The notes: a model not told the origin generated them from the sequence alone. Positions 2,316 to 44,178 are shown, numbered from the stretch's first letter. The stretch: DNA of 64,000 bases from Promethearchaeia archaeon (GCA_046497275.1 JAWOFX010000088.1:64670-128669); one strand, 5' to 3'. Numbers and translations are program-made.

Positions 2316-5300
2316 ATGTCTGGATTAGATGAAGGTCTTTTAGGACCAACAATCACGAAAAAGCGAGTTATTGCTCTTGCACTAGTCACTATCATAATGA
2401 TCGCTGCATTCGCATACTCTGTAATGATTTATAGCTGGTTATTTGGTTCACCCCGTAAAAGTCCAAATGAAAGATTAGAAGGTGCTCCAGAAGAGGATGC
2501 GTTATTAATTCTTCCTGAATCGGGGTACAATTGGAGTGAATTAGCGGAAAATTTAGATCTCGATGATCCTGATTTACTCGATCAATTGAGAGATTTACAT
2601 GATGGTAATATTGATTTATTAGATCTCTTACAATATGCTGAATTAGCGGCTGCCTTGGCAGGATCCGATATTGAAGTATTTCGAGTATATAATATTCCAT
2701 CCTATGAAGAAGTAAGTGAAAAATTATGGAAGTTTGAATGTTTTGATGAGTTTCTGGGTGATTCTTGGGAATGTAATGTACCTCTCCAAAATTATGATTT
2801 TTATTCATATAGTGATTATTACTCTAAACATTCTGGATTAAATATTTATAATATTTCAATGCCTTTATCTCCCGGTTTAGGTTCAAACTCTTTTATGATT
2901 CCAAATTTGTTCCCGAATCCTTATATCATGGAAAATAGCATTAAAGTTCCAAATATAACTCCCGGATCAGAAGTTTTAAGAAAAAATGCTTTTAATTCCA
3001 CTACATTAACTCTTGATTTTACATCTGAAAATTCTGTTAATATGACATATGAATTATTTGGATTAACATTACCAACTAATACAGAAATTAATAATTCTGC
3101 CTTAGATGAGGATTATACTCCAGCAATCATAAGAGATAGATATCTTCAACTCCCTCCCGATATTTCTACTTATTTAGATTTTAATGTTCACCCAAATATT
3201 AATTTTCATTACAATAATTTAAGAACCATCATAAATGATGAAGATACTTCTTTTGTTGTCGCTAATAAAATCAGAAATTATCTACAGGAAAACTTTAGTT
3301 TTGGATATAATGCTCTTGAAAATTCTCCCCCAGCTGATGGAGAGGATCTTGTGGAATGGTTCTGTTTTCATGAAGAGGGTATTTGGACTCACTTCGCTTC
3401 TGCCTTTTGCGTTTTCTGTAGGGCTTTTGGAGTTTCTTGCAGGTTTGTTGATGGATATAATTCCCGATATGCCGATACGGTAAACGATCCTATAATGGGA
3501 GATGGAATAGCTGTAAAATATAGAAATTTATACAATTGGGCGGAAGTTTACATACCAACTGATGTGTCTGGAAATGGCATATGGGTTCAAATGGATATGC
3601 TTTACGATTCTTTTGGAGGAGGTTCAGGAGTTGGACCAATATTAAATAATTATAATATAACTCTTTCCAGTAATTTTACATCTGGACCTCGAGGATCAAT
3701 TGCGCAACTTAATGCAACCTTGAGTAGTTCATATAATCTTTCTGTTTCTGATAAAAATATTCAATTTTATGATTATACTATGGATGAAATTTTAGGTTTT
3801 AGCACTACTGATTCAAACGGGTTAGCTACTTTCACATTTCCAATTGATGATAATCAAACTGTAGGACCACATATAATATATGCAAGCTATGGTGGCGCTG
3901 CTAATTTGACTTTTTATATCGTAGATGGTGATATACAAGTCAATTTAACCTCAGTTAGCCCACCGCAAGTTAATATTTCCCAAGACCCATATACCACAAT
4001 AAGTGGAACTGTAAGGGATCCAGTTAATGGAAAACCAGTGAAAAATGCAATTATGAATTTAATCTTATATCAAAAAGGTACAAATAATATTGTAAATCCT
4101 TCTTTCAGTCCTTCTTCAATAACAGCAAATGATAATGGAGTATTTAGCCAAACTGTAAATATAGATTCTTCGGTTCCTTATGGACAGTATGAAGTAAGAG
4201 TAGATTTTAATGGAAGTTGGGCTAATCCTTTAAGTCCATCATTTCCTTTCACATATCCATTTATTAACAATTACAGCAACAGATTAGATTTAAACGTTAC
4301 AAAAGAATTAACGTATTCATTGTGGTTTTATATTAATGATATCCCTGCTACTGATAATTCCAATCCCTTGGTATCTCGCTTTTCTACGATCGAACTGAAA
4401 GCGATTGTTTATAATGGAACAGGCGACTTAGCAAAAAATGAAATCATCGGATTTTATGATGGTTCTGGAACTTTAATTGGGCAAAATGTAAGTGATGAGA
4501 ATGGAGTTGCAATTTATAATTATAATGTTGGCATTAATGTTCCAGCAGGTCCAAATCAAATTATTTCCCGAATTGGAACTATTTCTAATAGTTCATATTA
4601 TATTTTAAATGCTCCAATAAATATCTATCCAATAGATTGCCCAAATCCTAATAGTGTCAGTCGAAGTTCTCTAGATGATGAAGATTTCACTATTCAAGGT
4701 TATTTAGAGGACGATTATTCTAATCCAATAAGAAGTGCGATAATTTATATTAATTTATACGATCAGAGTGACTCAGATGTCACATCCCAATACCTTGAAT
4801 ATGTCAGTGGATCTTTTATAACGGATAATAACGGCAACTTTTCTCTGCAGTTTGGAGTAGATAACATTACACCATTGAATAATTATACTCTTAATGTAAG
4901 CTTTTATGGACAATTTAATAATCCTTCTGTCAGTTTTGTTTCTTCTCAAACACAAGAATCTCCTTATGAATTAGAAGTCATTGATCCATATCAAATTGAT
5001 ATTTATTTTACAATCGATGGAACTCCAACAAAATTATTCTATAATGATGGAAATCCGCCTAAACGATATAATCTTGGTGAAAATATAAATTTTGGAGTTG
5101 AAATATATCAAGGTGGCAGTCCTGTTGATAATGACACAGTATATTTCTATGATTATGATGTTAGTAATGATATTCCGTTTCATACATATGAGTTTAATGG
5201 ATTTGAGACACCATTAGGGTATTACAATTTTTCTGTGAATACAGGAAGCTGGAATGCAGGATTACATGAAATTAGAGTAACTTATGGTAATTATGGTGTA

Positions 5301-6050
5301 TATAATTTTACTTACGTACTTATTAATAAATCTATTTCAATCAATACAAATTTGGATTCTCCAAGCGATTATACTATTCAAAGACTTTCAGAAAGCTTAA
5401 CTATTTCTGGGAACGTTTATGATTTTGATAGTCTCGATCATTTACGAGGTCTAGGAATAGGATTATATCTATTCGATATTAATGGTCAAGATTATTCAGA
5501 TGATTTGAATTTTGCATCTGGATATTCTCAAAATATGACTTTAGATCAAGATGGTACATTTCAGTTTGTTATTAATTCTGTAAATGAAATTCCGATAGGA
5601 GAATATAATTTAAGAGTTGATTTCAATGGAACGGTAATAGAATCCGCAATATATTTGTCTGATTATCTTGTTCATTCTTCAAGCTCTCCAATAAATATAA
5701 ATATTACAGCAGGAGTTCAGATTGATGGTAATTATGATACTGTTTATGATAAAGATCAATTTTATTACAACGATACAATGTATGTCTATGGATATTTAAA
5801 TTGGGATAATCTTACAGTTATGAATAATTATGAGGTAAATATAACGATACTTGATGCTTTAGACAATATATTGGAAACCAAAATTGCTACTACTGATCCA
5901 AGTGGATTTTTCAATACATCATTTACAGTTAAAAATTGGGATGAGGATACTACAAAAGTGATAGTCAATTTTTTACCCGAAGATAATTTTGACTTTCCTG
6001 ACTATTATTATGTTGAGGCAAAATCTCAACAAGTTTTTAGAGAGATTTGA
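2316..6050 (+). CDS. Giant membrane-anchored transglutaminase-like (apparently catalytically dead) surface repeat protein
   Basis: N-terminal TM helix (VIALALVTIIMIAAFAYSVMIYSWLF). Transglutaminase-core-like segment EGIWTHFASAF..RFVDGY..YNWAEVYIP..WVQMD at aa ~350-430. About 800 aa of repeated beta-rich modules follow, each with a T(T/S)DxNGxF-type motif. About 36 N-x-S/T sequons by manual count. Confidence 0.75.
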   Translation: MSGLDEGLLGPTITKKRVIALALVTIIMIAAFAYSVMIYSWLFGSPRKSPNERLEGAPEEDALLILPESGYNWSELAENLDLDDPDLLDQLRDLHDGNIDLLDLLQYAELAAALAGSDIEVFRVYNIPSYEEVSEKLWKFECFDEFLGDSWECNVPLQNYDFYSYSDYYSKHSGLNIYNISMPLSPGLGSNSFMIPNLFPNPYIMENSIKVPNITPGSEVLRKNAFNSTTLTLDFTSENSVNMTYELFGLTLPTNTEINNSALDEDYTPAIIRDRYLQLPPDISTYLDFNVHPNINFHYNNLRTIINDEDTSFVVANKIRNYLQENFSFGYNALENSPPADGEDLVEWFCFHEEGIWTHFASAFCVFCRAFGVSCRFVDGYNSRYADTVNDPIMGDGIAVKYRNLYNWAEVYIPTDVSGNGIWVQMDMLYDSFGGGSGVGPILNNYNITLSSNFTSGPRGSIAQLNATLSSSYNLSVSDKNIQFYDYTMDEILGFSTTDSNGLATFTFPIDDNQTVGPHIIYASYGGAANLTFYIVDGDIQVNLTSVSPPQVNISQDPYTTISGTVRDPVNGKPVKNAIMNLILYQKGTNNIVNPSFSPSSITANDNGVFSQTVNIDSSVPYGQYEVRVDFNGSWANPLSPSFPFTYPFINNYSNRLDLNVTKELTYSLWFYINDIPATDNSNPLVSRFSTIELKAIVYNGTGDLAKNEIIGFYDGSGTLIGQNVSDENGVAIYNYNVGINVPAGPNQIISRIGTISNSSYYILNAPINIYPIDCPNPNSVSRSSLDDEDFTIQGYLEDDYSNPIRSAIIYINLYDQSDSDVTSQYLEYVSGSFITDNNGNFSLQFGVDNITPLNNYTLNVSFYGQFNNPSVSFVSSQTQESPYELEVIDPYQIDIYFTIDGTPTKLFYNDGNPPKRYNLGENINFGVEIYQGGSPVDNDTVYFYDYDVSNDIPFHTYEFNGFETPLGYYNFSVNTGSWNAGLHEIRVTYGNYGVYNFTYVLINKSISINTNLDSPSDYTIQRLSESLTISGNVYDFDSLDHLRGLGIGLYLFDINGQDYSDDLNFASGYSQNMTLDQDGTFQFVINSVNEIPIGEYNLRVDFNGTVIESAIYLSDYLVHSSSSPININITAGVQIDGNYDTVYDKDQFYYNDTMYVYGYLNWDNLTVMNNYEVNITILDALDNILETKIATTDPSGFFNTSFTVKNWDEDTTKVIVNFLPEDNFDFPDYYYVEAKSQQVFREI

Positions 6051-6085
6051 GAAAGTGAAGAAAAAACATATAAATCAAAAATATT

Positions 6086-7690
6086 ATGAATCGAGAATTA
6101 TTATTTGGGAAAAATAGGAATTATAGTACATCCATATTTCTTTTTTTCATCCTTTTTGTAATTTTATTTAATTCAATTTCTATATTTGTTTTTGATGGAA
6201 TTAAGAGTTCTGAAAATAAAGATCAATATATTAAACAATCAGCTTGGACTTGGGCAACTTTAGATTTAACAAATCCAGAAGATATCAATAATTCCCGCTT
6301 TTCACATTTTTCAAATATTAGTATTGAAGGCAGACTTTACAATAAAATAACTGAAGATAATAAATCTGGTGAGATAATTGTCATTGAAGTTGATGGGAAT
6401 ATAGATACGAGATATTCTAGTGTTACAAATATAAATGGTATTTTTCAAATTAATTACACGATAGATCCCTCTCTTGATGTCTATTCACCTCATATAATAA
6501 AAGCAAAGGTCCAGGATTTAGAAACTGATCCCCCTGGAGGGGAAGTTGAATATGATGATTTTTACCGGATAAATGTAAACGCTACATCTTATCTTGATGT
6601 TACATTTTCCAATAAACCATATCTTCCTGATGAAGAATTTGATTTAATTGGATATTTGAGATATAATAATGAAAATGGAAATGGAATTCCAGGTGAATCG
6701 ATTACTTATTACTGGACCAATGGAACTTATGATTGGATACCTGGTAATTTTTTAACTAATGCGGCAGATGGATCAATTTCCGAAGTCATAAGTTTACCTA
6801 TCAACCCTCAATCAATCCATTTATTTTTAAATCTAAGTTATCCCGGTGATCTCCCAAATATAAAATCATCCCAGATAGTAATTGGTCCATTTGATATATT
6901 TTACAACATTTCATGTACTTGGAATATGTTAAACGAAACCTCTGAGGGTGGAGATTATACGATTAGAGGACAAATCTGGGAAAAAGGTAATCCTAGCCGT
7001 AAAATTTACAATAGGCAAGTGAATTTATATTATGAAGGAGAAGGTCTAATAGGAAGTGCAACTACAGATGCCAACGGAAATTTTTCTTTCATTTATTCAA
7101 TTCCCCCGGGTACAGGAAATAAATCCATCAGAATTCAATTAGTAAACACTGCAGGTTTGTTTTTGACCAATGAAACGCGGATATTAATCACGGCTGGAGT
7201 CCCAATCCTCCCTCCTGGCTTTAATATTAGACCTTTCCAATGGTTTTTTATAATAGGTCTTCCGATTATTATCGGAATAATTGCTGCACTTGGAATTTAC
7301 GGATATTTCTATTATAAAAAAGAAATATCTGCCTCGCGGCTAGTTAATATCCCACTTGAGGGAAAGATTAGAAATCTAAAAATATTAAAGGATTCCGGAA
7401 GAATAGAAGAGGCACTTTCATATCTATTTAATGCGATTTATGTTGAATTAGTTGGAGCAAAATACGGAAGAAAAAGAAAATTTAATGAAACAATCCGTGA
7501 TTTTGCTATAATTTCTGTGCAAGATTTTAAATTAGATCCCGCTAAAATATATCCTTTCATTCAAAAAATAGAACAAATAATTTATGCTCAACCCTTCAAA
7601 GTCACAGAAGAAGAATTTTATAAAACAATTGAGCTATTCTCGCCCGTATATTATCAATTAACGGGATACAAGTTTATTCTTAATTTTTAA
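6086..7690 (+). CDS. Membrane protein with extracellular repeat modules and a cytoplasmic DUF4129-like tail
   Basis: N-terminal TM, then the same repeat modules as the preceding gene (TNINGIFQINY, TNAADGSISEV, TTDANGNFSFIY). A second TM follows (FFIIGLPIIIGIIAALGIYGYFYY). The C-terminal ~95 aa is paralogous to ORF 7822..8193. Confidence 0.7.
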   Translation: MNRELLFGKNRNYSTSIFLFFILFVILFNSISIFVFDGIKSSENKDQYIKQSAWTWATLDLTNPEDINNSRFSHFSNISIEGRLYNKITEDNKSGEIIVIEVDGNIDTRYSSVTNINGIFQINYTIDPSLDVYSPHIIKAKVQDLETDPPGGEVEYDDFYRINVNATSYLDVTFSNKPYLPDEEFDLIGYLRYNNENGNGIPGESITYYWTNGTYDWIPGNFLTNAADGSISEVISLPINPQSIHLFLNLSYPGDLPNIKSSQIVIGPFDIFYNISCTWNMLNETSEGGDYTIRGQIWEKGNPSRKIYNRQVNLYYEGEGLIGSATTDANGNFSFIYSIPPGTGNKSIRIQLVNTAGLFLTNETRILITAGVPILPPGFNIRPFQWFFIIGLPIIIGIIAALGIYGYFYYKKEISASRLVNIPLEGKIRNLKILKDSGRIEEALSYLFNAIYVELVGAKYGRKRKFNETIRDFAIISVQDFKLDPAKIYPFIQKIEQIIYAQPFKVTEEEFYKTIELFSPVYYQLTGYKFILNF

Positions 7691-7821
7691 TATAAAGGAT
7701 TATCATAATGCAAAACAAATAAAATTAAAATAAGTTATTAAAAAAATAGATTACTACAAAGAAATTTAAATTTAAAAAAAATTATAAAATAAAAAAATAA
7801 AAAAAACTAATGTGAAAAAAA

Positions 7822-8193
7822 ATGGGTCTTTTCAGTAAAGATGTAAAACCACAATTCATAGATGTTGAACGCAAAAAAGAAAATCTTCGAATATTAATGA
7901 AAACCGAAAGATCTAAGGAAGCAATTGCCTACATATATCTTATCTATAATGATCTTATTAAGAATAAATATGAAAAACCTCGATTGGCTTATCAGACCAT
8001 ACGTGAGTATGCAATCGTAGCTGTAAATGAGTTAGGACAAAAACCCGAAACCATTTATCCCTTTATAAAAAAAATTGAAGATATAATATATGGGGGGGTT
8101 GAACCTACTAAAAAAGAATTTGAATTTACATTAAATATGTTTTCAAACCTTTATAATGAGATTACAGGCAAAAACTTTGGTTTCAATATTTAG
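7822..8193 (+). CDS. Stand-alone DUF4129-like protein
   Basis: 123 aa. Aligns by eye with the C-terminus of the upstream protein (IREYAIVAV / IRDFAIISV; IYPFIKKIEDIIYG / IYPFIQKIEQIIYA; LYNEITGK / YYQLTGY). Confidence 0.6.
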   Translation: MGLFSKDVKPQFIDVERKKENLRILMKTERSKEAIAYIYLIYNDLIKNKYEKPRLAYQTIREYAIVAVNELGQKPETIYPFIKKIEDIIYGGVEPTKKEFEFTLNMFSNLYNEITGKNFGFNI

Positions 8194-8242
8194 AGAAGAT
8201 TTTTTAAATATTTCATATAGATTTAAAGGAAAAAAATAAAAA

Positions 8243-9988
8243 ATGGCAAGTATTGAGAGTTCTACAAGAAAGAGTGTAAAGATTTCCAAGGGAATTTTAT
8301 ATATCTTCTTTACAGTTTACTTAATCGTTATAGGAGTATATTTAACAGGATTTATCGAATCCTATCAATCTACTAATCCCGGAGAATTGCCCGTTTTTAC
8401 TAATTATGTTCCTTTAGCTTGTTATTTGGGAGCAGCAGTTGTTGGAATTAGTTTTATTATTTTTATTCGCAATATAACAGCTCAAAAAACACGGGAACTG
8501 AAGTCTAAACGAAAATCACAAATCTCCCTTTTTAAACAAGCACTATTCATTATCATTTTTATATTTGCTTTTATCCCATTATTCTCTCCTATAATTGATC
8601 AAGGTGTAAATAATCATAATTTTTCAGTATATAATTCTGGGTGGAATGGTTCCTCAGATTTCAGACAAACGATGATTGATGAGGGTTATGATGTGATGTC
8701 AATCCAATCAAGTTTAAGTGCTACAGAGAGACTTGATAAGTCTATATGCTTAGTTTTATTGGGACCAAATCAATTTTATAATCCCCTTTTTGAAATTCCG
8801 TTTTTTGTTGATTTTTTTAATGGAGATAATGCGATCTTAATTTGTCACGATCATGGTTCAACTAGAGAATTATTATGGCAAATTCTCCTCTCAAGTTTAC
8901 TTAGTCCTAATGCTACTGAAATGATCCCAGTCACATTATTTGCGACTGGTTATCTAAGGGATAATGCATCTTATCTTACTAATCCAAAATTTCCAATAAT
9001 CACTCAATTTGAACCTCACCCCACTACTAATGGTATTGATGATGTTATTCTTTCTACAGCAACAAGCGCAGCGGGAGGTCCCCTTGTAGATATTTTTGGA
9101 TGGAATGTAATTGCTCGTGGTTCACCTTACAGTTTTGTAGACAGAAATGATGACGGTAGATTTAACTCTTCAGACGATTATTTAGATCTTTCTTTTATGG
9201 CAGCTGCATTACCCATCCCAGAGGAATATCTCAAATTACCACTCGGCGGAGATGAATTTACCCCTATCACTTTTATGACAAAAGATACGGGAAGTGCTCG
9301 TGTATTTGTGTCTTCAGATGCAAGTATGTGGAATAATGAACTAATCAATCTTCCCGGATATGATAATAAACAATTTGCAATTAATGTAATAGATTGGTTA
9401 ACTCGTCAAGATGAAGGAGACCCTAAGGATAATTGGATTGTAGCATTCGATGAAGCTCATATTCGTCCAGAACAATCGAGAGATTTAAGTTCTGCGGGAA
9501 TTTATGGCTATATTATGCAGTATATTATTCACTTAAGTACAAACCCAATAACTGCGTGGATTTATCCCTTGTTGGCAATTTATACTCTCAGACGTTATTT
9601 ACCGGGAGGTAAAAAGAAAAAAGAGAAGAAAAAAATAGAAGAAGAAGAAAAAAAGGAAGAGAAGATGAGATTTCGCACCTCTTCTTTTTTCGCAAAAAAA
9701 ATTGATTGGTATCGTGACAAAAGTCAATATAAAAAAGCTTTATTATTATTGAACCGTCGCTTAGAACGAAAGTTAAATGCCCAGTTAGGAGGGAAAAAAA
9801 TAACAACAGATAATGTAGTTAATCTAGTACGATCTAAAGAACCAAATATAAATAAAAGTAAACTTAAACGCATCTCCCGATTTATTGATAAAATAATATC
9901 CCTGAAATCAGGTAAGTTAAAAATTAAAGAAGAATCTGAATTCGAAGAATTTTTCTTTGAAATGGAATGGGTTGTTTCAAATATATAA
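8243..9988 (+). CDS. DUF4350-like membrane protein with Lys/Glu-rich cytoplasmic tail
   Basis: Three N-terminal TM helices and an extracellular ~330-aa domain beginning NFSVYNSGWNGSSDFRQTMIDEGYDV. A late TM is followed by a GGKKKKEKKKIEEEEKKEEK tail. Its position between the DUF4129-like and MoxR genes matches the known DUF4129/DUF4350/MoxR/DUF58 neighbourhood. The family call is an inference. Confidence 0.5.
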   Translation: MASIESSTRKSVKISKGILYIFFTVYLIVIGVYLTGFIESYQSTNPGELPVFTNYVPLACYLGAAVVGISFIIFIRNITAQKTRELKSKRKSQISLFKQALFIIIFIFAFIPLFSPIIDQGVNNHNFSVYNSGWNGSSDFRQTMIDEGYDVMSIQSSLSATERLDKSICLVLLGPNQFYNPLFEIPFFVDFFNGDNAILICHDHGSTRELLWQILLSSLLSPNATEMIPVTLFATGYLRDNASYLTNPKFPIITQFEPHPTTNGIDDVILSTATSAAGGPLVDIFGWNVIARGSPYSFVDRNDDGRFNSSDDYLDLSFMAAALPIPEEYLKLPLGGDEFTPITFMTKDTGSARVFVSSDASMWNNELINLPGYDNKQFAINVIDWLTRQDEGDPKDNWIVAFDEAHIRPEQSRDLSSAGIYGYIMQYIIHLSTNPITAWIYPLLAIYTLRRYLPGGKKKKEKKKIEEEEKKEEKMRFRTSSFFAKKIDWYRDKSQYKKALLLLNRRLERKLNAQLGGKKITTDNVVNLVRSKEPNINKSKLKRISRFIDKIISLKSGKLKIKEESEFEEFFFEMEWVVSNI

Positions 9989-10067
9989 TAATCATTTTAA
10001 AAAAATTTATAACAATTAATTACTATAATCAAAAAAAAGTAAAAAAAATAAAAAAGGTTTAAAAATT

Positions 10068-11048
10068 ATGACAGTACCGAGTAAAGGAGAGAAGTATGAC
10101 CACCCAGAATTGGATGTCACCCCCATTCGTGAGATTGCTCAAGATGTATTATCGGAAGTAAGTAGAGTGATCGTTGGATATGGGGAAACATTACAGCAAT
10201 TATTCATAGCTTTACTTGTAAATGGACATGTTCTTTTAGAAGGCGTTCCAGGTTTAGGAAAAACAGTGATGGCAAAAACTTTTGCTGAAACTCTTGGGAT
10301 AAGTTTTAGAAGAGTTCAATTTACACCAGATCTTTTACCCGCTGATATTACGGGAACTAAGATCTTTTCCCAAGAGAAAGGGAACTTTGTGCTTCAAAAA
10401 GGCCCACTATTCGCCAATTTAGTTCTTGCTGATGAAATAAATAGAAGTGCGCCTAAAACTCAAGCCGCGCTTCTTGAAGCTATGGCTGAGCGCCAAATCA
10501 CCATAGAAGGGGAAACATTAGCGCTTGAGAAACCCTTTATCGTAATAGCTACTGAAAATCCTATTGAGATGGAAGGCACATATCCGCTTCCGGAAGCACA
10601 GGTTGATAGATTCTTATTCAAACTCTGGTTAGATTATCCAGAACAAGATGAAGAAGTTGAGATTATGCGGCGGCAATTATCTGGCGATTTACCGTCTGTA
10701 CAACGAATTACGACTGGCTCTGAAATTTTAGCTGCCCAAAACTTAGTGAATCAAGTGTATATTGATGAGAGAATCCTTAAATATATCAGAGACCTTATTT
10801 TAAAGACCAGAAGTCATCCACAAGTACAAATGGGGTGTGGTCCACGTGCATCTTTAGTCTTGATGAAATGCTCGAAAGCACGAGCGGCTATCCTTGGACG
10901 AACATATGTAACACCTGATGATGTGCGTGCATTAACCGTTCCAGCCCTCAATCATAGACTTCTTTTAAAGCCGGAAGCTGAATTAGAAGGTCTTGATGTG
11001 AAAGCGGTTGTTAAGAATATACTTGAAGAAATTCCAATTCCGATATAA
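10068..11048 (+). CDS. moxR: MoxR-family AAA+ ATPase
   Basis: Walker A GVPGLGKT and Walker B LVLADEINRSAPKTQAALLEAM. Length of 326 aa and the C-terminal lid region are typical of MoxR (AAA_3). Confidence 0.9.
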   Translation: MTVPSKGEKYDHPELDVTPIREIAQDVLSEVSRVIVGYGETLQQLFIALLVNGHVLLEGVPGLGKTVMAKTFAETLGISFRRVQFTPDLLPADITGTKIFSQEKGNFVLQKGPLFANLVLADEINRSAPKTQAALLEAMAERQITIEGETLALEKPFIVIATENPIEMEGTYPLPEAQVDRFLFKLWLDYPEQDEEVEIMRRQLSGDLPSVQRITTGSEILAAQNLVNQVYIDERILKYIRDLILKTRSHPQVQMGCGPRASLVLMKCSKARAAILGRTYVTPDDVRALTVPALNHRLLLKPEAELEGLDVKAVVKNILEEIPIPI

Positions 11049-11116
11049 ATTGAGTATTTTTCTAGCGCTTGAATAAAGTGATATCACTATTAGAAAAGAA
11101 TGGAGGAAAATAAAAC

Positions 11117-12445
11117 TTGTTAGGTGGTAAAGGAAGAAGTTTAGTTATATTTAGCGTCTTTTTCCTTACAGCAGGATTTGCTTTTGTAAATTATTTCCTT
11201 GTATTTTTTGGAATAATTTTATTATTTAGTACAGTTGTGAGTCTTCCTCTTTTCTATTACCAAATGAACATTGAGGAATTGAAAGTTTCTCGAGAATTAG
11301 AAAAAGAGAAAGTCTTCAAAGATGATTTCGTTCATATTAAAGTAATTGTAGAAAATCGAGGCAAGAATAGTTTTGATTTTCTTGAAATTCGTGATTCTTA
11401 TAATCCTGAATTGTTTAGGCTTATTTTGGGAGAAAATTTCATAAGTACACGGATAGGTCCTAAAGAAATTATCAAGTTTTCCTATATTTTAGAACCAAAA
11501 GTACGAGGAACATATCCGATTGGTCCTTTAAGTGTGACAGTAAAAGATAGACTTGGATTTAATTCTGAAGAAAGGATAGTTCCAGAGAGTGTAACTGATA
11601 TTTTGATTTATCCTCCTTATGAAGATATAAAAAGAATTGAGATATTAGGTTCAAAACGTTCTCTTCAGCTAAACTATGGTATTCAAAGATCCAAACAAAA
11701 AGGATTGGGATCTGAGTTTTATGGAATGAGAAAATATGTGTTTGGAGATCAATTTCGATTAATCGATTGGAAAGCGAGTGCACGAACTCAAAAACTCATT
11801 GTCCGAGAATTTGAATCAGAACGAGATATAACCGTGATGATATTGGTTGATTCTTCGAATTCTATGGCAGGTGGCGCAATTGACAACACAAAATTCGAAT
11901 ATTCCATTAGAGCGTGTATGTTATTAACTAAAATTGCTCTTACACGCCGAGATAGTGTAGGTGTGTATACATTTTCAGATAAAAAGAACCTCCGCTTTTT
12001 AAAACCTGGAAGCGGTGATGATCATTTCTATCGCATTTTGGATTTTGTTGCGAGAGTAAAACCAGAAGGAAAATGTAAGATGGTAGAAGCACTTGATTAT
12101 TTCAATCGGAGGTTTCAAAAAAGAAGTTTAATTTTTCTAATTTCAGATTTGGAATCAGATATTAAAGAGATCCGACAGGCATTGAAGAAATTGGTTCCAT
12201 TTGATCACTCTGTGATTATTATTAATCCATTCTCTCCATGGTTTGAGATTCATGAAGTTGACTTATCAACAACAGATAAAGCATTAGCAGAAGCAATCGC
12301 AGAGGAGATGATGGAGCACATATTAAAAATCAGACAAGAAGTACGTAATATGGGTATGAATGTTATCACAGTTGGCCCGGATGATATGATGAATCAAGTA
12401 ATCGCTAATTATCTTGAAGCTAAGAAAAAGGGTAAAGCCTATTGA
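11117..12445 (+). CDS. DUF58 family protein (vWA-like), MoxR partner
   Basis: Two N-terminal TM helices, the signature YVFGDQFRLIDWKASARTQKLIVREFESE, and the vWA/MIDAS-like ILVDSSNSM. The track gives a TTG start. Confidence 0.85.
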   Translation: MLGGKGRSLVIFSVFFLTAGFAFVNYFLVFFGIILLFSTVVSLPLFYYQMNIEELKVSRELEKEKVFKDDFVHIKVIVENRGKNSFDFLEIRDSYNPELFRLILGENFISTRIGPKEIIKFSYILEPKVRGTYPIGPLSVTVKDRLGFNSEERIVPESVTDILIYPPYEDIKRIEILGSKRSLQLNYGIQRSKQKGLGSEFYGMRKYVFGDQFRLIDWKASARTQKLIVREFESERDITVMILVDSSNSMAGGAIDNTKFEYSIRACMLLTKIALTRRDSVGVYTFSDKKNLRFLKPGSGDDHFYRILDFVARVKPEGKCKMVEALDYFNRRFQKRSLIFLISDLESDIKEIRQALKKLVPFDHSVIIINPFSPWFEIHEVDLSTTDKALAEAIAEEMMEHILKIRQEVRNMGMNVITVGPDDMMNQVIANYLEAKKKGKAY

Positions 12446-12457
12446 GGTGAAAAAAAA

Positions 12458-13939
12458 ATGAAACGCTATTATCTCACAATATTGAGGATTTTAAATGCTC
12501 TTTTATTTGTATGGATTATATTCATTTTTCTTTCATTATTTGACTTTAGCGCAGTCTTAACAACCTCCGATAATGAATTAGTCATTTTAGATGTGATCTT
12601 ATCTATCAAGAATCTCATAAGTTATGGCTTGTATTTTATTTTATATTTAATAGCTTATGGGATCGCCTTCATTATGGCGGGTTTATTCTCACCTTTTGCA
12701 TTTTTTAATCTGAATTATACACTAACTTTTATTCAGCAATTCTTTAAAAATTACTTAAGTGTATGGTTTTCTTTCCCCGGAGGGGCAGCTCCGGAATTAT
12801 TTCAAGTTCCTCCCCTAATGTTGCAAGAATTATTACTTTTTACAGAAGATTTTTATCTCCTTATTTTCCAAATTCTCTTCATAATCGCAATAATTTATCT
12901 AATTAGGGGAATCATTTCAAGTGATCCTAAAATTAACATGAGGGCTTTAGGATGTTTAATCTTAATGATTGTCATTCCTCTCATAATTTTTGGATTTAGA
13001 GATATGTTAGCATTGTTTAATTTGGTAGAACCATTTAATTCTCTTGGTATAATAAATTTAAACGAGTTGGCAGATCCTTTAAGTCCATTATTTGATAATC
13101 TCCCTATTGACAACTTTTTTGCATTCCTAGCAAGTCCTGTGGCCTTATTCGCTATTTTTAGCTATTTATATTTGGAACTTGCATTCCAAATAAATTATAT
13201 AGACACAGTAACACGACCTTCATTAGAAAGAAGTGATAGGTTGGAAGCTCAGTTAAATTTACTAAGAAAAGAAGCGGGTCATATTACTGCAAACATTGAT
13301 AAAATAAAAGAAGAGGCTAAGAAGAAAAAAGAAGAATTAGGGATTGAAAGAGAATCTATCGGAAAATTTTTGACTCAAAAAGACAAAAAATTTTCATATG
13401 TAAAAGAAATGATTGAAAAAAGAAAATTAGAGTCTGAAGAAAAGAAACTGGTGCGCGCAGCTTCAAAAACAAGAAGATTGGGAAGATATATAGAAAGGTT
13501 ATTTAGAGAGGATTCTGAGGCAGAAGATACAATTACTGCAAAATCCTCGGCACCTAGAGCAAGAAACCTAGCCATTTCAACAATATCAAATGCAGCATTT
13601 AGATTAATTATGTTAATTTTAATCAGTTTTATTATAATACATCCGAAATGGTTTTTCAAAAATGTCTTTCAATTACCTCCAGCAATTACAGAAAGTGTCG
13701 CTACATTAAGTCCCGAAATAATTCTTATTCTATTATTACCAATCATTTTATTATTTCCAGTAATTGGTAAAATTATCTCTTATATAAAACATAGAACTCT
13801 TGTGTTGAGATTAAAGCAAGAGGGAAAAATTAAAGAAATACTCGCTTCAGTGGGTGATTATGTGAAGAAAGAAGAGATACCAGAAGACCAGACTGAAGAA
13901 GAAATACCTTTTTCGGAAATTGCGACAGAAGCTACATAA
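12458..13939 (+). CDS. Polytopic membrane protein with central cytoplasmic coiled-coil (last gene of the MoxR module)
   Basis: 493 aa. Multiple hydrophobic helices flank a K/E-rich segment (aa ~250-350). The start lies 12 nt after the DUF58 stop and is preceded by GAGGTG. No family recognised. Confidence 0.55.
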   Translation: MKRYYLTILRILNALLFVWIIFIFLSLFDFSAVLTTSDNELVILDVILSIKNLISYGLYFILYLIAYGIAFIMAGLFSPFAFFNLNYTLTFIQQFFKNYLSVWFSFPGGAAPELFQVPPLMLQELLLFTEDFYLLIFQILFIIAIIYLIRGIISSDPKINMRALGCLILMIVIPLIIFGFRDMLALFNLVEPFNSLGIINLNELADPLSPLFDNLPIDNFFAFLASPVALFAIFSYLYLELAFQINYIDTVTRPSLERSDRLEAQLNLLRKEAGHITANIDKIKEEAKKKKEELGIERESIGKFLTQKDKKFSYVKEMIEKRKLESEEKKLVRAASKTRRLGRYIERLFREDSEAEDTITAKSSAPRARNLAISTISNAAFRLIMLILISFIIIHPKWFFKNVFQLPPAITESVATLSPEIILILLLPIILLFPVIGKIISYIKHRTLVLRLKQEGKIKEILASVGDYVKKEEIPEDQTEEEIPFSEIATEAT

Positions 13940-19354: not shown

Positions 19355-20446
19355 ATGAACATTATTTACATCGTTAATTTTTACATTTATAAGAACTTGA
19401 CTTCATTACCTACTGTAGGGGGAATAGAGGTCACCACTTTAGATATTATTCAAGAACTAAGAAATAGAGGACATAACGTTTGGGTCCCCTCAGAACAAGA
19501 ACAACCAAATTGGGTTGATCAAGAAAATGTTGATATAATTTGCTCCTCTAGTTTCGATCCAATTACTTTTTTTCAAGTTATCATGTATAAAAATAAATAT
19601 AAAAAAACTGCCGCCGTTGTTCAACACGCTCACACAACATATGAGGATTTAAAAGGAAATATTTTACCAGATAACGTATTTTTCAATAAATTATTAAAAT
19701 TATGGGTCAGAATCTTATACAGTCAAGCACATTTGTTAATAACACCCAGTGATTATGCAAGAAAATGTTTAGAAGCAATACAAAAAACTAGAACATATCC
19801 CATTTGGTCAGTCAGTAGTGGTATAATTATTGAAAAATTTGAAAAAGATAATGGATATGGCTTAAAATTCAGGAAATATCTTAAAAAAAATTATGGTATT
19901 CCTTTAGATGCAACGATTATTTTGAATGTTGGTTTAACCTGGAAAAGAAAACGAGTAGATATTTTTGGAAAAGTAGCAGAAAGATTCCCAAATTATTATT
20001 TTGTATGGGTAGGACCCATAAATGATAACCCCGATGTGGAGGATGTCTCAAAATTAGATAATGTTATATTTACGGGTTTTTATGATGATATACGTGAACC
20101 TTATTACGGCTCGGATGTTTTATTAGTTCCTACTGATGAGGAAAATTTATGCTTACCGTTAATCGAAGCATCTCTATGCAAATTACCCGTGGTCGCACGC
20201 GATATTCCTGCATTCGATTGGTTAGAGCATGAAATTTCTGCATATAAAGGAAATGAACTTGAAGATTTTACAGAAGGTATAAAAAAAATCATTAAAACCA
20301 GAGAATTTAAACAAAAATTAGTTGAAAATGCATGTGAAACTGCAAAGAATAAACACGATTTCAGTGAAACTGTTGACACAATTGAGGATTATTTCAATAA
20401 AGCGTTATTAATTAAAAAAGTCTGGGATAGAAAAAGAAGGAAATAA
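19355..20446 (+). CDS. Glycosyltransferase, GT4 (GT-B fold) family
   Basis: GGIEVTTLDIIQELRNRGHNVWV N-terminal domain and a C-terminal E-x7-E-like region (ENLCLPLIEASLCKLPVVA). Confidence 0.75.
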   Translation: MNIIYIVNFYIYKNLTSLPTVGGIEVTTLDIIQELRNRGHNVWVPSEQEQPNWVDQENVDIICSSSFDPITFFQVIMYKNKYKKTAAVVQHAHTTYEDLKGNILPDNVFFNKLLKLWVRILYSQAHLLITPSDYARKCLEAIQKTRTYPIWSVSSGIIIEKFEKDNGYGLKFRKYLKKNYGIPLDATIILNVGLTWKRKRVDIFGKVAERFPNYYFVWVGPINDNPDVEDVSKLDNVIFTGFYDDIREPYYGSDVLLVPTDEENLCLPLIEASLCKLPVVARDIPAFDWLEHEISAYKGNELEDFTEGIKKIIKTREFKQKLVENACETAKNKHDFSETVDTIEDYFNKALLIKKVWDRKRRK

Positions 20447-32198: not shown

Positions 32199-34775
32199 AT
32201 GAGAAACGATTCTCAGAATATTAAAAAAAATACAATAGCGTTTTCTAGTGCGCTAATAGTTACAATTTTATGCTTGGTAATTTTTTCGATGCCCTTACTT
32301 GGATTCTCTTTAGGAAATCTTTTATTTCCTGGGAATGGTCTTTGGACTGTGCCTGGAGAACCAGAGAGTCAACTTATCTATATAGATGGTATGGATGATG
32401 AAGTTACGATTATTCGAGACGAATGGGGTATCCCTCATATTTATGCTACAACTGATAATGATTTATTTTTTGCCCAGGGATATCTCCATGCTCAAGACAG
32501 ATATTTCCAGATGGATTTGATTCGTCGCCAAGTGCGCGGTCAATTATCAGAAATATTAGGAGAGGGTGCCCTAAATCAAGATAAGCTAATGCTTGCGATG
32601 GGAATGGAATATTGGGCAATAAAAACCGACCAAGAAATTAGAGCTAATTATTCTGAATTTTTACCTCCTTTTGAAAATTATGTTGAAGGTATTAATTATT
32701 ATTTAGAAACTCATAAAGATCAAAAACCGGTAGAATACCAGTTACTTGGGTTTGAGCCTAAACCCTGGACAAGCATCGATACTTTATGTCTCGTGCAAGA
32801 AATGGCACGTCAATTATCTTGGAATTATAATGACCTTTATCGGTACTCAAATTGGGCAGGATTAGGAAGAGATAAGTATCTTGAATTATTTAATCCTTTT
32901 CAACCTTATCAAATTCCAATTGTCCCTAATTATTCCAGTTATGAAACAACTCCTAAATTCTCTTCAAGTGGTTCACTAGCGCCCTCATCATTAAAATTGT
33001 CCGTAGATCATCTGATTAGTGGAATAGAAAGTATTGATTCTGAAAAGAAATTGATAGAGTCGCGAGAAATTACAGGTTCGAATAATTGGGTAATAGACGG
33101 CTCTAAATCAAATACAGGTAAACCCATTTTATGCAATGATATGCATCTTTCTTGGATTCTACCTGGAGTGTGGACAGAACAACATTTAGTTTCTGAAGAG
33201 ACAGGTATTAATTCATACGGATTTGCTATTCCTGGAATGCCATTAGTAGCAGTAGGTCATAATGAACATTTGGCATGGGGATTTACAAATACGGGATATG
33301 ATGTTATGGATTGGTATTATTATAACGAGAAGAATAGTACGCACTATCTCTATGAAGGAGAATATGAGTCTTTTGAAACCAGAGATTATACCATAAAAGT
33401 TGCTGGTGAGGAAGATGTTCAATTTACCGTAAGAGAAACAAAAGAAGGACCTGTCTTGACTGATTTTTTGGGTAGTAGAATCCCTTCTAATTTAACCCAA
33501 CCAAATATAATTTTTGCGGCACAATGGATGGGGAATGACATTTTCTATAATCTTTTAGCAGGGGAAGGTTTTAATCGTGCAAAAAATAGAGATGAGTTTA
33601 ATGAAGCCTCCAAATACTGGAGCACTTTAGCTCAAAATATTGTATATGCTGATGTAGATGGAAATATTGCGATACGTCCAACAGGCAGAGTTCCAATTAG
33701 AGATGATTCAAAGATTCCCTCATGGCATTTAGGAAATGGAACACTTCCTTATAATGGTTCTAATGGAGAAGGAAAATGGGTTGATGAAATACCCTTTGAT
33801 CAATTACCTAATAGCTTAAATCCGACGCAAGGATATTTGGCTTCGGCAAATCAAATCGCAGTTGGTCCAGAATATAATTTTAGTAAGTATTTCCTACAAA
33901 ACGAATATGCAAATGGATATAGAGCTCGGAGAATAAATGAGTTGCTAAATACAACTAATAATATCTCAGTAGAGAAAATGATGGAAATTCAATTGGATGT
34001 GAATTCCTCAGCAGCAAAAGCATTTATACCCACTTTAATTGAGGTGATTGAATACACTTATGGGGATACTATTCCGGAGGATCTTGATCAAGCTTTTACT
34101 ATTTTAAAAGACTGGAGATATATAATGGATAAAGACGAAGCTGCTCCAACGATCTATCGAAAATGGCGGGATTATTTTTATGCTTACACGTTCAATGATG
34201 ATATTAGTCATAACAACTTAAGTCGTGGACCTATGCTTGTTATGTTAGAATATTTAATGAATAACAAAACATCCCATTGGTTTAATGATACCTCTACTGG
34301 TACCCCAATATCACAAACTCGAAATCAAACGATGTTATTAGCTTTTAATGATACAATCGATTGGCTGGAAAATTTTTATGGCACTTCAGATGCATCACAA
34401 TGGAAATGGGGAGATATCCATAAATTATATTTTGAACATCTCTCTGGTCTATCCTTACTCAGTAAAGGACCATTTCCTGGTGATGGAGAAGGCTACACAG
34501 TAAATCCTGCGGGAGTTAGTATTCATAATGGTGTCGGTTTAGCTAGAGGGGGAGCATCAGAACGCATGATTGTTGATTTCAGCGATTTAGGAAATTCTAA
34601 GAGCGTCATACCATCGGGCCAATCAGGACATCCGCATCTTAAACATTATTCAGATCAACTTACAGAGTTATTCTTAAAAGGAAAATATCATTCTCAATAT
34701 TTCTATTACACACCAGCAAATTTTCCATCTATTGAAACAAGATTAATCTTTAGACCGGCGGGAGGTGTGTTCTAA
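32199..34775 (+). CDS. Penicillin/cephalosporin/AHL acylase family Ntn-hydrolase
   Basis: N-terminal TM/signal. DEWGIPHIYA..FFAQGYLHAQDRYFQMD (alpha subunit). GSNNWVIDG with the Ntn nucleophile Ser (beta subunit start). 858 aa. Confidence 0.85.
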   Translation: MRNDSQNIKKNTIAFSSALIVTILCLVIFSMPLLGFSLGNLLFPGNGLWTVPGEPESQLIYIDGMDDEVTIIRDEWGIPHIYATTDNDLFFAQGYLHAQDRYFQMDLIRRQVRGQLSEILGEGALNQDKLMLAMGMEYWAIKTDQEIRANYSEFLPPFENYVEGINYYLETHKDQKPVEYQLLGFEPKPWTSIDTLCLVQEMARQLSWNYNDLYRYSNWAGLGRDKYLELFNPFQPYQIPIVPNYSSYETTPKFSSSGSLAPSSLKLSVDHLISGIESIDSEKKLIESREITGSNNWVIDGSKSNTGKPILCNDMHLSWILPGVWTEQHLVSEETGINSYGFAIPGMPLVAVGHNEHLAWGFTNTGYDVMDWYYYNEKNSTHYLYEGEYESFETRDYTIKVAGEEDVQFTVRETKEGPVLTDFLGSRIPSNLTQPNIIFAAQWMGNDIFYNLLAGEGFNRAKNRDEFNEASKYWSTLAQNIVYADVDGNIAIRPTGRVPIRDDSKIPSWHLGNGTLPYNGSNGEGKWVDEIPFDQLPNSLNPTQGYLASANQIAVGPEYNFSKYFLQNEYANGYRARRINELLNTTNNISVEKMMEIQLDVNSSAAKAFIPTLIEVIEYTYGDTIPEDLDQAFTILKDWRYIMDKDEAAPTIYRKWRDYFYAYTFNDDISHNNLSRGPMLVMLEYLMNNKTSHWFNDTSTGTPISQTRNQTMLLAFNDTIDWLENFYGTSDASQWKWGDIHKLYFEHLSGLSLLSKGPFPGDGEGYTVNPAGVSIHNGVGLARGGASERMIVDFSDLGNSKSVIPSGQSGHPHLKHYSDQLTELFLKGKYHSQYFYYTPANFPSIETRLIFRPAGGVF

Positions 34776-42330: not shown

Positions 42331-44178
42331 TTGCTAATGTTGAAAAAAAGAAAAATTTACTTGCTAACAACGATTTTCATATCAATCTTTATCATTAGTT
42401 CCTTTATTTCAATATTTGATTATAATACTTGCTATAATCGTTCAAATTATGAACTACCTAAGACAGCTTCAAGCATAGAAGGAGCTTCCGATATTATAAT
42501 CTCTAAAATTAATCGAACTATTGATATAAACGGATTTGGATTAACAAATTTTAAGGATTCTTTAACAATTAAAAATGAATATAATAATCCTGTCTCCTCA
42601 ATTTTGATAGGAATTCCATCTAATATTTATGATGATTTAATATATTATGAAGCAACTGGTATGGGGAAAAATAGTTTATTGGTGGAAGAGACTGATATCA
42701 TAATGGATAATAATAAAATGATGTTAGCAATATATTTTGATTCTCCACTGCTTCCTCAAGAATCTAAATCAATAATTCTCTCCCATTCTTATAAGGAACT
42801 TTTACAATACCAACCCTCAGGGGAAAATCAAAAGATTTCTTTTACTGGAATAGTTTATCCGCTTTTCCCTTATAAAGCAGAAGGATTAATAAAAACAATT
42901 GTTATTCTGCCAATTGGATCGACTATCATTAATTCCGATTTTTGGGGGGAGAATAACGATAATTTAATAATTTATGACCTTGAAGAATTAACCCAATCAT
43001 ATTTAGAACCATTTTTAGAAAACTTAGGGGAAGATAAAATAATTGAGTTATCATTCACCCATCCTTCCAAAACAAGATTGGAAATACAAAAATCCACAAG
43101 GGAAATAACAATTTCCCCGTGGGGAGTGATTAAAGTGAAAGAGAGTATTTTAATTAGGAATCTCGGCTCTATAGATCTTGGAAAATTTAACTTAAAAATA
43201 CCAAAAGGGGCTCGCAATGCGAAAACAACCGATCATTTAGGGGAAATTGATGGAACTACTGTGACAGATTTACCGAATAATCCCAAATCCAAACAAATTA
43301 ATCTGGATCTTACAAATAATAGGGTGACAATGAATCCAGACTCGAGTTTCAGATTTACATTAACATATCAATTAAATCTGGCAGATTATGTATCTTATAA
43401 CTGGTTCAAACAATCAATACAAATGGATATAATAACAACACGCTGTGATTTTTTAGTAAGAGATCAAATTACAAAAATCATCATAGAAAGCTCTCTTAGC
43501 ATAACTGATATTTCTAATCTTCCAAATGAATTTGATGAATCGGTTGCATCTAGCATTCTCGTCTATGAATCAGATTACATTAGCAATATTGAAGAGAATA
43601 AAATTTTATTGACTTATACTCTAGATATTTTTGAAATGTTCCTCAGACCGCTAATAATTTTATTATTAATTGCATCACTGTGTTCGGGGTTTATCCTTTT
43701 TATTAAGAAAAGAAAGCAAATGGGCATTTTACCTATGATTGAAAAAGAAGAGATTCCTATAAAAGAGATCAGAGAGTTTTGTTCACTCTATGAGCAAAAA
43801 AATGCCCTTACATTAGAAATTCGAGAAGCAGAAGAGGAACTTAAGCGACGTAAATTAACTAAAAAACAATATCGTAATCTTGTTGATAAAAATGAATCAA
43901 AACTAAAGGATATTGATGAGGAAATAAAACCTTTTAAGAAAGAATTGATGGAAACAAATCAAACTTTTGAAAGCATGATAAAAAAACTAGATGTTTTAGA
44001 AGCGGAACGGCAAACGGTCGAGGATGGATTAAAATTATTGGAAAGCAGATATAAAAAAGGGAAACTTCCTTCAAGATCAGCTTATGTAAAATTAACCAAT
44101 GATTTTTTAAATAGACGAAAAAAGATTGACAGAACAATATCTCGTTTTATACAACAATTACGTTCTTATCTCCTTTAA
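42331..44178 (+). CDS. Ribophorin I / OST1-like protein (oligosaccharyltransferase accessory subunit homolog)
   Basis: Signal-anchor, INRTIDING near the N-terminus, and TREITISPWGVIKVKESILIRNLG. The last aligns by eye with human RPN1 [24 protein letters not shown]. A single late TM and a cytoplasmic coiled-coil tail reproduce the ribophorin I architecture. The start could be TTG 42331 or ATG 42337. Confidence 0.65.
   Translation: MLMLKKRKIYLLTTIFISIFIISSFISIFDYNTCYNRSNYELPKTASSIEGASDIIISKINRTIDINGFGLTNFKDSLTIKNEYNNPVSSILIGIPSNIYDDLIYYEATGMGKNSLLVEETDIIMDNNKMMLAIYFDSPLLPQESKSIILSHSYKELLQYQPSGENQKISFTGIVYPLFPYKAEGLIKTIVILPIGSTIINSDFWGENNDNLIIYDLEELTQSYLEPFLENLGEDKIIELSFTHPSKTRLEIQKSTREITISPWGVIKVKESILIRNLGSIDLGKFNLKIPKGARNAKTTDHLGEIDGTTVTDLPNNPKSKQINLDLTNNRVTMNPDSSFRFTLTYQLNLADYVSYNWFKQSIQMDIITTRCDFLVRDQITKIIIESSLSITDISNLPNEFDESVASSILVYESDYISNIEENKILLTYTLDIFEMFLRPLIILLLIASLCSGFILFIKKRKQMGILPMIEKEEIPIKEIREFCSLYEQKNALTLEIREAEEELKRRKLTKKQYRNLVDKNESKLKDIDEEIKPFKKELMETNQTFESMIKKLDVLEAERQTVEDGLKLLESRYKKGKLPSRSAYVKLTNDFLNRRKKIDRTISRFIQQLRSYLL

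Follow-up and report, generated by a model that had tools for sequence, protein, structure and literature searches.

Introduction

MoxR-family AAA+ ATPases and their von Willebrand factor A (vWA) partners act as remodeler and adaptor, respectively, on dedicated complexes, as has been described for NorQ/NorD (PMC9976466) and RavA/ViaA (PMC3893208); the vWA adaptor binds its dedicated target via its metal ion-dependent adhesion site (MIDAS), after which the AAA+ ring remodels that target (PMC9976466, PMC3893208). The tgpA gene of Pseudomonas aeruginosa, which is essential and encodes a protein with a periplasmic transglutaminase (TGase) domain, is co-transcribed with two upstream genes (PMC3507681). 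In Actinomycetales, an immunoglobulin (Ig)-repeat surface filament, a transglutaminase, a MoxR protein, and a vWA protein together form the threat-sensing pathway Esr, in which the sensor is divergent, MoxR and vWA are conserved, and the TGase has been proposed to anchor the sensor covalently (bioRxiv 10.64898/2026.09.08.750141), and the PFNA cluster of Bifidobacterium likewise brings together an FN3 surface protein, MoxR, DUF58, and a TGase (PMC8430577). This paper describes a cluster of seven genes (O1 to O7) at positions 2316-13939 of a 64,000-nucleotide (nt) stretch of DNA from a Promethearchaeia archaeon (GCA_046497275.1, JAWOFX010000088.1:64670-128669), hereafter the window, which encodes MoxR, DUF58, DUF4350, DUF4129-family, and TGase-fold proteins.

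Clusters in which MoxR and DUF58 are accompanied by TGase, DUF4129, and DUF4350 are among the most common conserved prokaryotic neighborhoods without an assigned function. The cluster in the window is the Asgard version of this widespread gene set, which is itself functionally uncharacterized: a literature search found no functional paper on the neighborhood and none on its Asgard version. The host is a metagenome-assembled genome (MAG) of approximately 30% GC from the Promethearchaeia, of the type of the Lokiarchaeia, an Asgard class to which the first Asgard archaea in culture belong. We tentatively propose that the seven genes encode a single membrane-spanning machine, in which MoxR and DUF58 would act on DUF4129 handles of a glycosylated complex formed by O1, O2, and O4.

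Results

Gene content of the cluster

A reading of the window made from the sequence alone (the sequence-only reading) had placed seven open reading frames (ORFs) on one strand, and all seven were recovered exactly on the + strand: O1 (2316-6050, 1244 amino acids [aa]), a surface protein with a TGase-fold domain; O2 (6086-7690, 534 aa), with Ig-like repeats and a DUF4129-family tail; O3 (7822-8193, 123 aa), a free, soluble DUF4129-family protein; O4 (8243-9988, 581 aa), a DUF4350 membrane protein; O5 (10068-11048, 326 aa), a MoxR-family AAA+ ATPase; O6 (11117-12445, 442 aa, with a TTG start), a DUF58 protein; and O7 (12458-13939, 493 aa), a polytopic membrane protein with a coiled coil. The gaps between consecutive genes range from 12 to 131 nt (35, 131, 49, 79, 68, and 12 nt from O1 to O7), an AT-rich spacer of 378 nt lies 5' of O1, and a convergent gene begins 14 nt 3' of O7. 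The family assignments proposed by the same reading were also borne out, with MoxR, DUF58, and the TGase core clearing the Pfam cut-offs and DUF4350 and DUF4129 being assigned at the level of families or profiles.

The MoxR and DUF58 proteins

O5 matched the Pfam families AAA_3 (E 3e-64, 215 bits, cut-off 27) and AAA_lid_2 (E 2e-23, 82 bits), and contains the Walker A motif GVPGLGKT at residue 59 and a Walker B motif, LVLADE, that was read by eye from the sequence. Directly 3' of it, O6 matched DUF58 (E 4e-34, 118 bits, cut-off 23.4) and VWA_2 (E 1e-11), with a BatD-like match at residues 61-143, and carries a two-helix membrane hairpin at its N-terminus along with beta-sandwich and vWA-like domains, the body of the protein being predicted to be cytoplasmic. 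Its MIDAS motif (D245-S-S-N-S, consensus D-x-S-x-S/T) is intact, and the Asp, the Ser, and the Ser/Thr are each found in 64/64 homologs.

The N-terminus that follows from the TTG start of O6 is conserved at the protein level, as tblastn identity of approximately 80% runs through the hairpin upstream of the first ATG. In related genomes gene callers took an ATG 49 codons downstream, resulting in a protein of 393 aa; since the tblastn identity extends upstream of the chosen ATG, many database entries for DUF58 of this clade are probably truncated at the N-terminus.

O2, O3, and the DUF4129 family

O2 consists of an N-terminal anchor, an Ig-like repeat ectodomain (residues 36-385), a transmembrane (TM) helix (386-404), and a cytoplasmic tail (405-534; window 7298-7687, + strand) in which the invariant residues cluster and which has a profile link to Pfam-positive DUF4129 proteins. 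It is 100% identical to an NCBI protein assigned to a "Promethearchaeia archaeon" and has 285 relatives at E <= 0.001; 120 of these were listed, and all listed ones with a name belong to Asgard archaea. The small protein O3 is a paralog of the O2 tail (41% identity to O2 residues 422-533, E 2e-21), and its AlphaFold2 (AF2) model is a five-helix bundle (pLDDT 86.7). A HEPN-like fold was considered for O3, as HEPN proteins are its top Foldseek matches in the PDB, and rejected (E >= 0.24, TM-score ~0.5, no Rx4-6H motif); nor is O3 related to the small protein (DUF8044) that precedes DUF4350 in haloarchaea.

Direct comparison of these proteins with the Pfam DUF4129 model (PF13559) yielded no match at E <= 10 for O3 or the O2 tail and no DUF4129 match in 32 O2 homologs, no Pfam or NCBIfam name was found for O2, O3, or O7, and hhalign of the O3/O2-tail profile against single DUF4129 sequences of Halobellus and Nocardia and against the haloarchaeal family was not significant. 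The link to DUF4129 was obtained with a HMMER profile of O3 and the O2 tails (A7), which was searched against 1.84 billion representatives and matched 113 proteins, always at or near the C-terminus, including the C-termini of TGase proteins with library-wide E values of 1e-7 to 1e-4. Pfam scanning of 43 of the more distant matches identified 15 as DUF4129-positive at E <= 0.01 (best 4.6e-12). The most distant group consists of proteins of 1150-1850 aa from Asgard lineages labelled Hel-, Frey-, and Hod-/Promethearchaeota. Six such fused proteins (1154-1506 aa) were scanned singly, and Transglut_core was detected in all six, Ig-like repeats in five, and a weak TgpA_N match in two; five carry a Pfam DUF4129 match at the coordinates that A7 had matched, three of these above the gathering score (A7 and Pfam coordinates, respectively: 1059-1171 and 1096-1158 in P0336; 1396-1494 and 1424-1489 in P0339; 1119-1229 and 1157-1213 in P0345). 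The earlier designation of O3 and the O2 tail as DUF4129-like was thus right, through a transitive profile link and with no direct Pfam match. Because A7 reaches the DUF4129 C-termini of fused TGase proteins, the best reading of O1 and O2 is that of a TgpA-like protein, of the order TGase, Ig repeats, TM helix, and DUF4129, which has been split in two.

O1 and its transglutaminase fold

O1 has a type-II anchored organization, in which a single N-terminal TM helix is followed by the TGase-fold domain and by Ig-like beta-sandwich units, roughly eight in number as estimated from the ~795 aa that follow the TGase domain. Pfam detected Transglut_core at residues 306-428 (window 3231-3599, + strand; E 4e-14, 53 bits, cut-off 23), as well as Big_3_5 (Ig-like), MG2, and CarboxypepD_reg, and the best solved relative of the TGase-domain profile is TgpA of P. 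aeruginosa (PDB 6g49, E 2.7e-4). The TGase-like character that the sequence-only reading had assigned to O1 therefore stands for the fold; it does not extend to the catalytic residues, as the Cys and His of the Cys-His-Asp triad are gone (W357 and Y406 at their positions) and D427 is kept. Alignments to 6g49, 3isr, and the PNGase 2f4m all place a Trp at the position of the catalytic Cys. Among 58 family members this column holds Trp in 50/58 and Tyr in 6/58, the Asp is retained in 54/58, and the His position (H-x-W) of the family is Tyr. In the fused Asgard relatives, the Cys is kept only in the Freyarchaeota protein, most of the others having Ser with the His retained.

Since Trp replaces Cys and Tyr replaces His across the Lokiarchaeia family, O1 is probably a pseudo-enzyme and is predicted to be non-catalytic, which would make crosslinking or protease chemistry by this protein unlikely. 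The domain is nevertheless better conserved than the Ig stalk (mean pairwise identity 57% vs 43%) despite the lost catalytic residues, which suggests that the TGase fold serves as a binding or scaffold module. The view that the extracytoplasmic proteins are greatly enlarged here has to be amended: large size is a trait of the whole lineage, O1 (1244 aa) is shorter than the median of its relatives (1476 aa), and fused Asgard and haloarchaeal relatives carry Ig repeats too.

The membrane proteins O4 and O7

O4 starts with three TM helices, has its DUF4350 ectodomain at about aa 122-408 (window 8606-9466, + strand), and ends, after a weak fourth TM helix, in a conserved cytoplasmic tail rich in Lys and Glu. 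The DUF4350 assignment is made at the level of the family: O4 itself scored 21.2 bits against DUF4350 (PF14258), under the cut-off of 30.4 bits, whereas 30/33 O4 homologs matched PF14258 (best E 3.4e-10), and the orthologs of O4 in two distant Asgard loci (L090 and L089) scored 72.6 and 48.3 bits. In agreement, hhalign of the O4 family with an annotated haloarchaeal DUF4350 protein (Haladaptatus) gave 98% probability (E 1e-13) over 230 columns, and a tblastn search of plasmids with O4 gave nine matches, all on haloarchaeal replicons, of which eight lie in genes annotated as DUF4350 and one in an unannotated stretch. A third DUF4129-like module was sought in the cytoplasmic tail, where the alignment is in register but reaches only P = 0.03, leaving it as a lead.

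O7 crosses the membrane with about 7-8 TM helices and has a coiled coil on the cytoplasmic side, at about aa 245-370. It has 398 relatives at E <= 0.001, and every named protein among the 120 that were listed is from Asgard archaea; no match was obtained in Pfam, and its AF2 model has no fold neighbor in the PDB. O7 represents an orphan family that has so far been found only in Asgard archaea. Homologs of O7 follow DUF58 in the distant Asgard clusters L090, L092, and L093 (hhalign 99.8-100%); in this slot bacteria have SpoIIM and RDD, and haloarchaea have small DUF membrane proteins. Kinship of O7 with SpoIIM, DUF7519, DUF7982, or DUF1616 was considered and discarded, as no relation was detected (by hhalign in the case of SpoIIM).

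Topology, sequons, and the conservation gradient

The earlier description of the membrane anchoring agrees with our predictions, in which all proteins but MoxR and O3 are anchored and these two are soluble. The DUF4129 modules, the body of DUF58, and MoxR are predicted to lie on the cytoplasmic side. N-glycosylation sequons are enriched in the ectodomains of O1 (36 sequons, 3.0 per 100 aa, z = 4.6 vs shuffles) and O2 (12 sequons, 3.4 per 100 aa, z = 3.5), the background of the window being 0.8 per 100 aa, and the cytoplasmic parts contain 0-1 in total, in line with the sequon-rich ectodomains that had been noted before. The enrichment is family-wide, being seen across homologs, and the confinement of the sequons to the ectodomains supports the predicted topology.

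The two sides of the membrane differ in their rate of change: the sequon-rich ectodomains diverge fast (mean pairwise identity 38% in the ectodomain of O2 and 43% in the Ig region of O1) and the cytoplasmic modules are highly conserved (MoxR 87% among 67 homologs, DUF58 84%, O2 tail 74%, O3 73%). This gradient points to the cytoplasmic interface of DUF4129, DUF58, and MoxR as the functional core. It also bears on the main rival of a machine that acts from inside, namely sensing in the manner of Esr and PFNA, in which the variable Ig-repeat ectodomains would be receptors for a partner cell, a virus, or a surface, and their signal would be relayed inward via the DUF4129 tails to MoxR and DUF58. 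Esr has the same gradient of fast ectodomain and slow cytoplasmic parts, Esr and PFNA both combine a repeat surface protein and a TGase with MoxR and DUF58/vWA, and O5 clears the Pfam cut-off of bpMoxR (33.3 bits vs 27). Against such a pathway, Pfam scans of the cluster and of the inspected flanks revealed no kinase, phosphatase, FHA protein, beta-propeller, transcription factor, or effector, an output component is not obvious, and the TGase fold of O1 lacks its nucleophile, whereas the TGase of Esr has been proposed to form a covalent anchor. Weighing these points, we consider outside-in sensing unlikely, and we continue to prefer the cluster as an inside-driven machine.

Distribution in Asgard archaea and beyond

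One genome per GTDB species was scanned, which identified an O2 relative in 109 species, and 80 loci were kept for comparison. All are labelled as Promethearchaeota or Asgard candidate phyla, except for three of an "uncultured archaeon" and one bacterium. The latter (DATKTW010000073.1), deposited as "Candidatus Nanopelagicaceae bacterium", contains a full Loki-type cluster with an O2 of 45% and a MoxR of 82% identity, and is probably an Asgard contig that was wrongly binned into a bacterial MAG. Using the window proteins in tblastn, the order and strand of O1-O7 were found to be kept in essentially every sufficiently long locus of the 80, with gaps that are short and stable across homologs (the median O6-O7 gap being 3 nt). 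The clustering is far beyond chance. An apparent natural split of the cluster in a MAG deposited as a "complete chromosome" (CP070831.1) was dismissed: scaffold gaps of 100 Ns (5677-5776 and 12220-12319) bracket O1-O3, and the missing O4-O7 are an assembly artifact.

More distant Asgard loci retain the module in other forms. L090 (Freyarchaeota) and L092 (Promethearchaeota) encode five proteins, being a fused TGase/DUF4129 protein, DUF4350, MoxR, DUF58, and an O7 homolog, in this order, and the fused chain runs from TGase through Ig repeats and a membrane helix to DUF4129. In L093, from a divergent lineage, the split form with seven genes is interrupted by a single unrelated gene. Outside the Asgard archaea, a Rhizobium plasmid carries DUF4129, DUF4350, MoxR, DUF58, SpoIIM, and RDD, Nocardia has DUF4129, MoxR, DUF58, and SpoIIM, and haloarchaea have a DUF4350-MoxR pair beside DUF58 and an Ig-repeat/DUF4129 protein of ~700 aa. 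These examples, with those of several Asgard lineages, confirm that the neighborhood is widespread, as the sequence-only reading had stated, and indicate that the core of DUF4129, DUF4350, MoxR, and DUF58 is older than Asgard.

The distribution speaks to two further explanations. The cluster might belong to the MoxR-vWA ternary systems that serve in conflicts or against viruses, and its surface proteins would then sense invaders or act as decoys. MoxR-vWA modules recur in conflict systems (PMC7159879, PMC8195603) and the surface-exposed parts evolve fast, but PADLOC models gave generic P-loop similarity only with the seven proteins, an effector domain is not present in the cluster, and occurrence in 109 species representatives at a fixed chromosomal site among housekeeping genes differs from the typically patchy and mobile nature of defense islands, which makes this explanation very improbable. 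A general role in maintenance of the envelope or of membrane proteins would place the client elsewhere in the genome, for example in a respiratory, secretion, or glycosylation complex, with the co-encoded membrane proteins only as scaffold or regulator, as has been suggested for MoxR operons of the Bat/cmd type and for MoxR1/RipA. The very high conservation of MoxR and DUF58 and the stable housekeeping flanks would suit a core cellular function, and MoxR clients are often encoded outside the operon, as for RavA/ViaA and Complex I (PMC3893208) and for MoxR1 with RipA and Tat (PMC4810496). Conversely, five co-inherited membrane proteins with conserved cytoplasmic modules would be a costly scaffold, and the pairing of DUF4129 and DUF4350 with MoxR and DUF58 recurs across phyla, arguing that these partners are the substrate or part of the complex; we therefore regard a client encoded elsewhere as rather improbable, somewhat more so than sensing, and favor action of MoxR and DUF58 on the co-encoded proteins.

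Neighboring genes and other features of the window

Directly upstream of the cluster, the window encodes (1020-1937, + strand) a protein of 305 aa that has an N-terminus rich in Pro and Ser, a long coiled coil, and, at its C-terminus, a zinc ribbon of the form CxxC...CxxC; the protein is syntenic in 56/83 loci. It probably lies outside the core module, because it is absent from the Freyarchaeota (L090) and L092 versions. Roadblock/LC7 and thymidylate kinase genes recur beside the module in L089, L092, and L093, which are otherwise differently arranged. An Arf-family small GTPase gene is located immediately upstream of the module in L092, and one is found nearby in L001/L002.

The window also contains genes of the N-glycosylation machinery (42331-44178 and 46287-47651, and also 19355-20446, all on the + strand; Pfam), ~28 kb away from the sequon-rich O1 and O2. 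Among these is a homolog of Ribophorin I (Pfam E 2.9e-18), an oligosaccharyltransferase subunit and known Asgard eukaryotic-signature protein, near which lie a gene of the GlcNAc-1-P-transferase family (Glycos_transf_4, E 3.6e-30) and a GT4 glycosyltransferase gene. At 32199-34775 (+ strand), a protein of 858 aa of the penicillin-amidase family (Ntn hydrolases) is encoded (Pfam E 2e-196).

Discussion

In the proposed machine, a heavily N-glycosylated and fast-evolving assembly would be exposed on the outside of the cell, comprising the inactive TGase fold of O1 on its Ig stalk, the Ig-like repeats of O2, and the DUF4350 domain of O4. On the inside, the DUF4129 modules (the O2 tail and O3), the O4 tail, and the coiled coil of O7 would be located beside the tethered DUF58 protein and a soluble MoxR hexamer. 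DUF58 is proposed as the adaptor by analogy with every studied MoxR/vWA pair; its MIDAS could take hold of an acidic residue in one of the cytoplasmic handles, DUF4129 being the most probable, and DUF58 could deliver this handle to MoxR, and ATP hydrolysis would then remodel the complex. The action of MoxR and DUF58 on such handles is suggested because DUF4129, the O4 tail, and the O7 coiled coil are the only conserved cytoplasmic features that are co-encoded. The outcome might be assembly, maturation, turnover or recycling, or a conformational switch of the surface proteins, driven from the inside. The sequences show the gene content, the predicted topology, the intact motifs, the pattern of conservation, and the relationship of split and fused forms; which parts touch, in which direction the machine acts, and what it does for the cell are inferred, a chaperone machine being the most plausible account.

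Several observations weigh against this proposal. The topology is derived from a hydropathy scan and the positive-inside rule only, and in the literature no experiment on any member of the neighborhood defines a client. In close relatives the flanks of the cluster are syntenic too (genes for a histone-deacetylase family protein and coiled-coil proteins upstream, CofD/F420 genes downstream), so the synteny among them is partly shared ancestry, and the distant Asgard loci with different neighbors provide the stronger evidence for a unit. Moreover, the Helarchaeota locus L089 contains only the fused protein, DUF4350, and MoxR, with no DUF58 beside MoxR, and the haloarchaeal clusters are rearranged and lack the TGase; the full gene set is therefore not obligatory.

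A more far-reaching generalization, which we offer as speculation and think doubtful, would have DUF4129 serve as a general cytoplasmic handle, through which a membrane-tethered DUF58/MoxR motor passes ATP-driven force across the membrane to TGase-fold and Ig-repeat surface proteins. In Lokiarchaeia the outcome would be a housekeeping machine of near-universal occurrence, with a dead TGase as binding module and O7 as a lineage-specific polytopic partner, by which cells without an ordered S-layer control how their main glycoprotein coat is displayed, extended, or shed. If O1 and O2 are indeed major surface glycoproteins of Lokiarchaeia, the cluster provides targets for study of the Asgard cell surface in cultured strains. 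The Asgard version of the neighborhood is also informative in itself, as its parts lie in separate genes, each part being assigned by the predicted topology to one side of the membrane, and the enzyme fold has visibly been inactivated.

Comparison with known systems

The two genes upstream of tgpA (PA2875-PA2874) are, we assume, those of MoxR and DUF58. TgpA and the O1/O2 pair have in common that the TGase fold faces outward and that a DUF4129 module follows a membrane helix, and TgpA_N, Transglut_core, and DUF4129 occur in distant proteins that the O3/O2-tail profile matches. TgpA differs in being one chain with a polytopic N-terminal TgpA_N/DUF3488 region, an active Cys-His-Asp triad, and measured TGase activity. 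In the window this chain is split into O1 and O2, Ig-like repeats have been added, O1 has a single N-terminal helix, and the Cys and His have been lost; Pfam found no TgpA_N in O1, and DUF4129 sits on O2 and O3, so the single-chain arrangement of TgpA is not present. Relative to the tgpA cluster, the window adds DUF4350, a free DUF4129 protein, and the O7 family.

The Rhizobium neighborhood is identical to the window in its central order of DUF4129, DUF4350, MoxR, and DUF58. In contrast, DUF4129 and DUF4350 of the bacterial neighborhood are small proteins of 251 and 424 aa that lack Ig repeats and a TGase, and SpoIIM and RDD take the place of O7 as membrane partners downstream; to our knowledge, no functional study of this bacterial DUF4129-DUF4350-MoxR-DUF58-SpoIIM-RDD neighborhood has been reported. 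In haloarchaea, the protein of ~700 aa that adjoins DUF4350 and MoxR shares the architecture of O2, with an N-terminal anchor, CarboxypepD_reg/Ig repeats, and a C-terminal DUF4129, and its ectodomain profile aligns with that of O2 (96.8% probability, E 2e-10); haloarchaeal and Loki tails gave no significant alignment. The haloarchaeal clusters differ further in having no TGase, in gene order and strands, and in their accessory membrane proteins (DUF8044, DUF7269, DUF7519, DUF7982, and DUF8163).

Esr and PFNA resemble the window in combining a repeat-built surface protein and a TGase-like membrane protein with MoxR and DUF58/vWA, the outer parts being divergent and MoxR/vWA conserved. They differ in having their own Ser/Thr kinase, phosphatase, and FHA proteins, and Esr in its beta-propeller sensor head and link to Esx secretion, none of which is found in the cluster of the window; DUF4129 and DUF4350, which are present in the window, have not been reported in the Esr and PFNA clusters. 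Features of the Bat/cmd type, namely a second membrane vWA protein (BatA/BatB) and a TPR protein after DUF58, were not detected in the cluster by Pfam. Finally, RavA-ViaA, NorQ-NorD, CbbQ-CbbO, and CoxD-CoxE share with O5 and O6 the combination of an AAA+ MoxR ring and a vWA/MIDAS adaptor for a dedicated complex. In these studied pairs the adaptors are soluble and the clients are enzymes that are given a cofactor or are reactivated, whereas in the window the predicted adaptor has a membrane tether and tails of surface proteins are the candidate clients.

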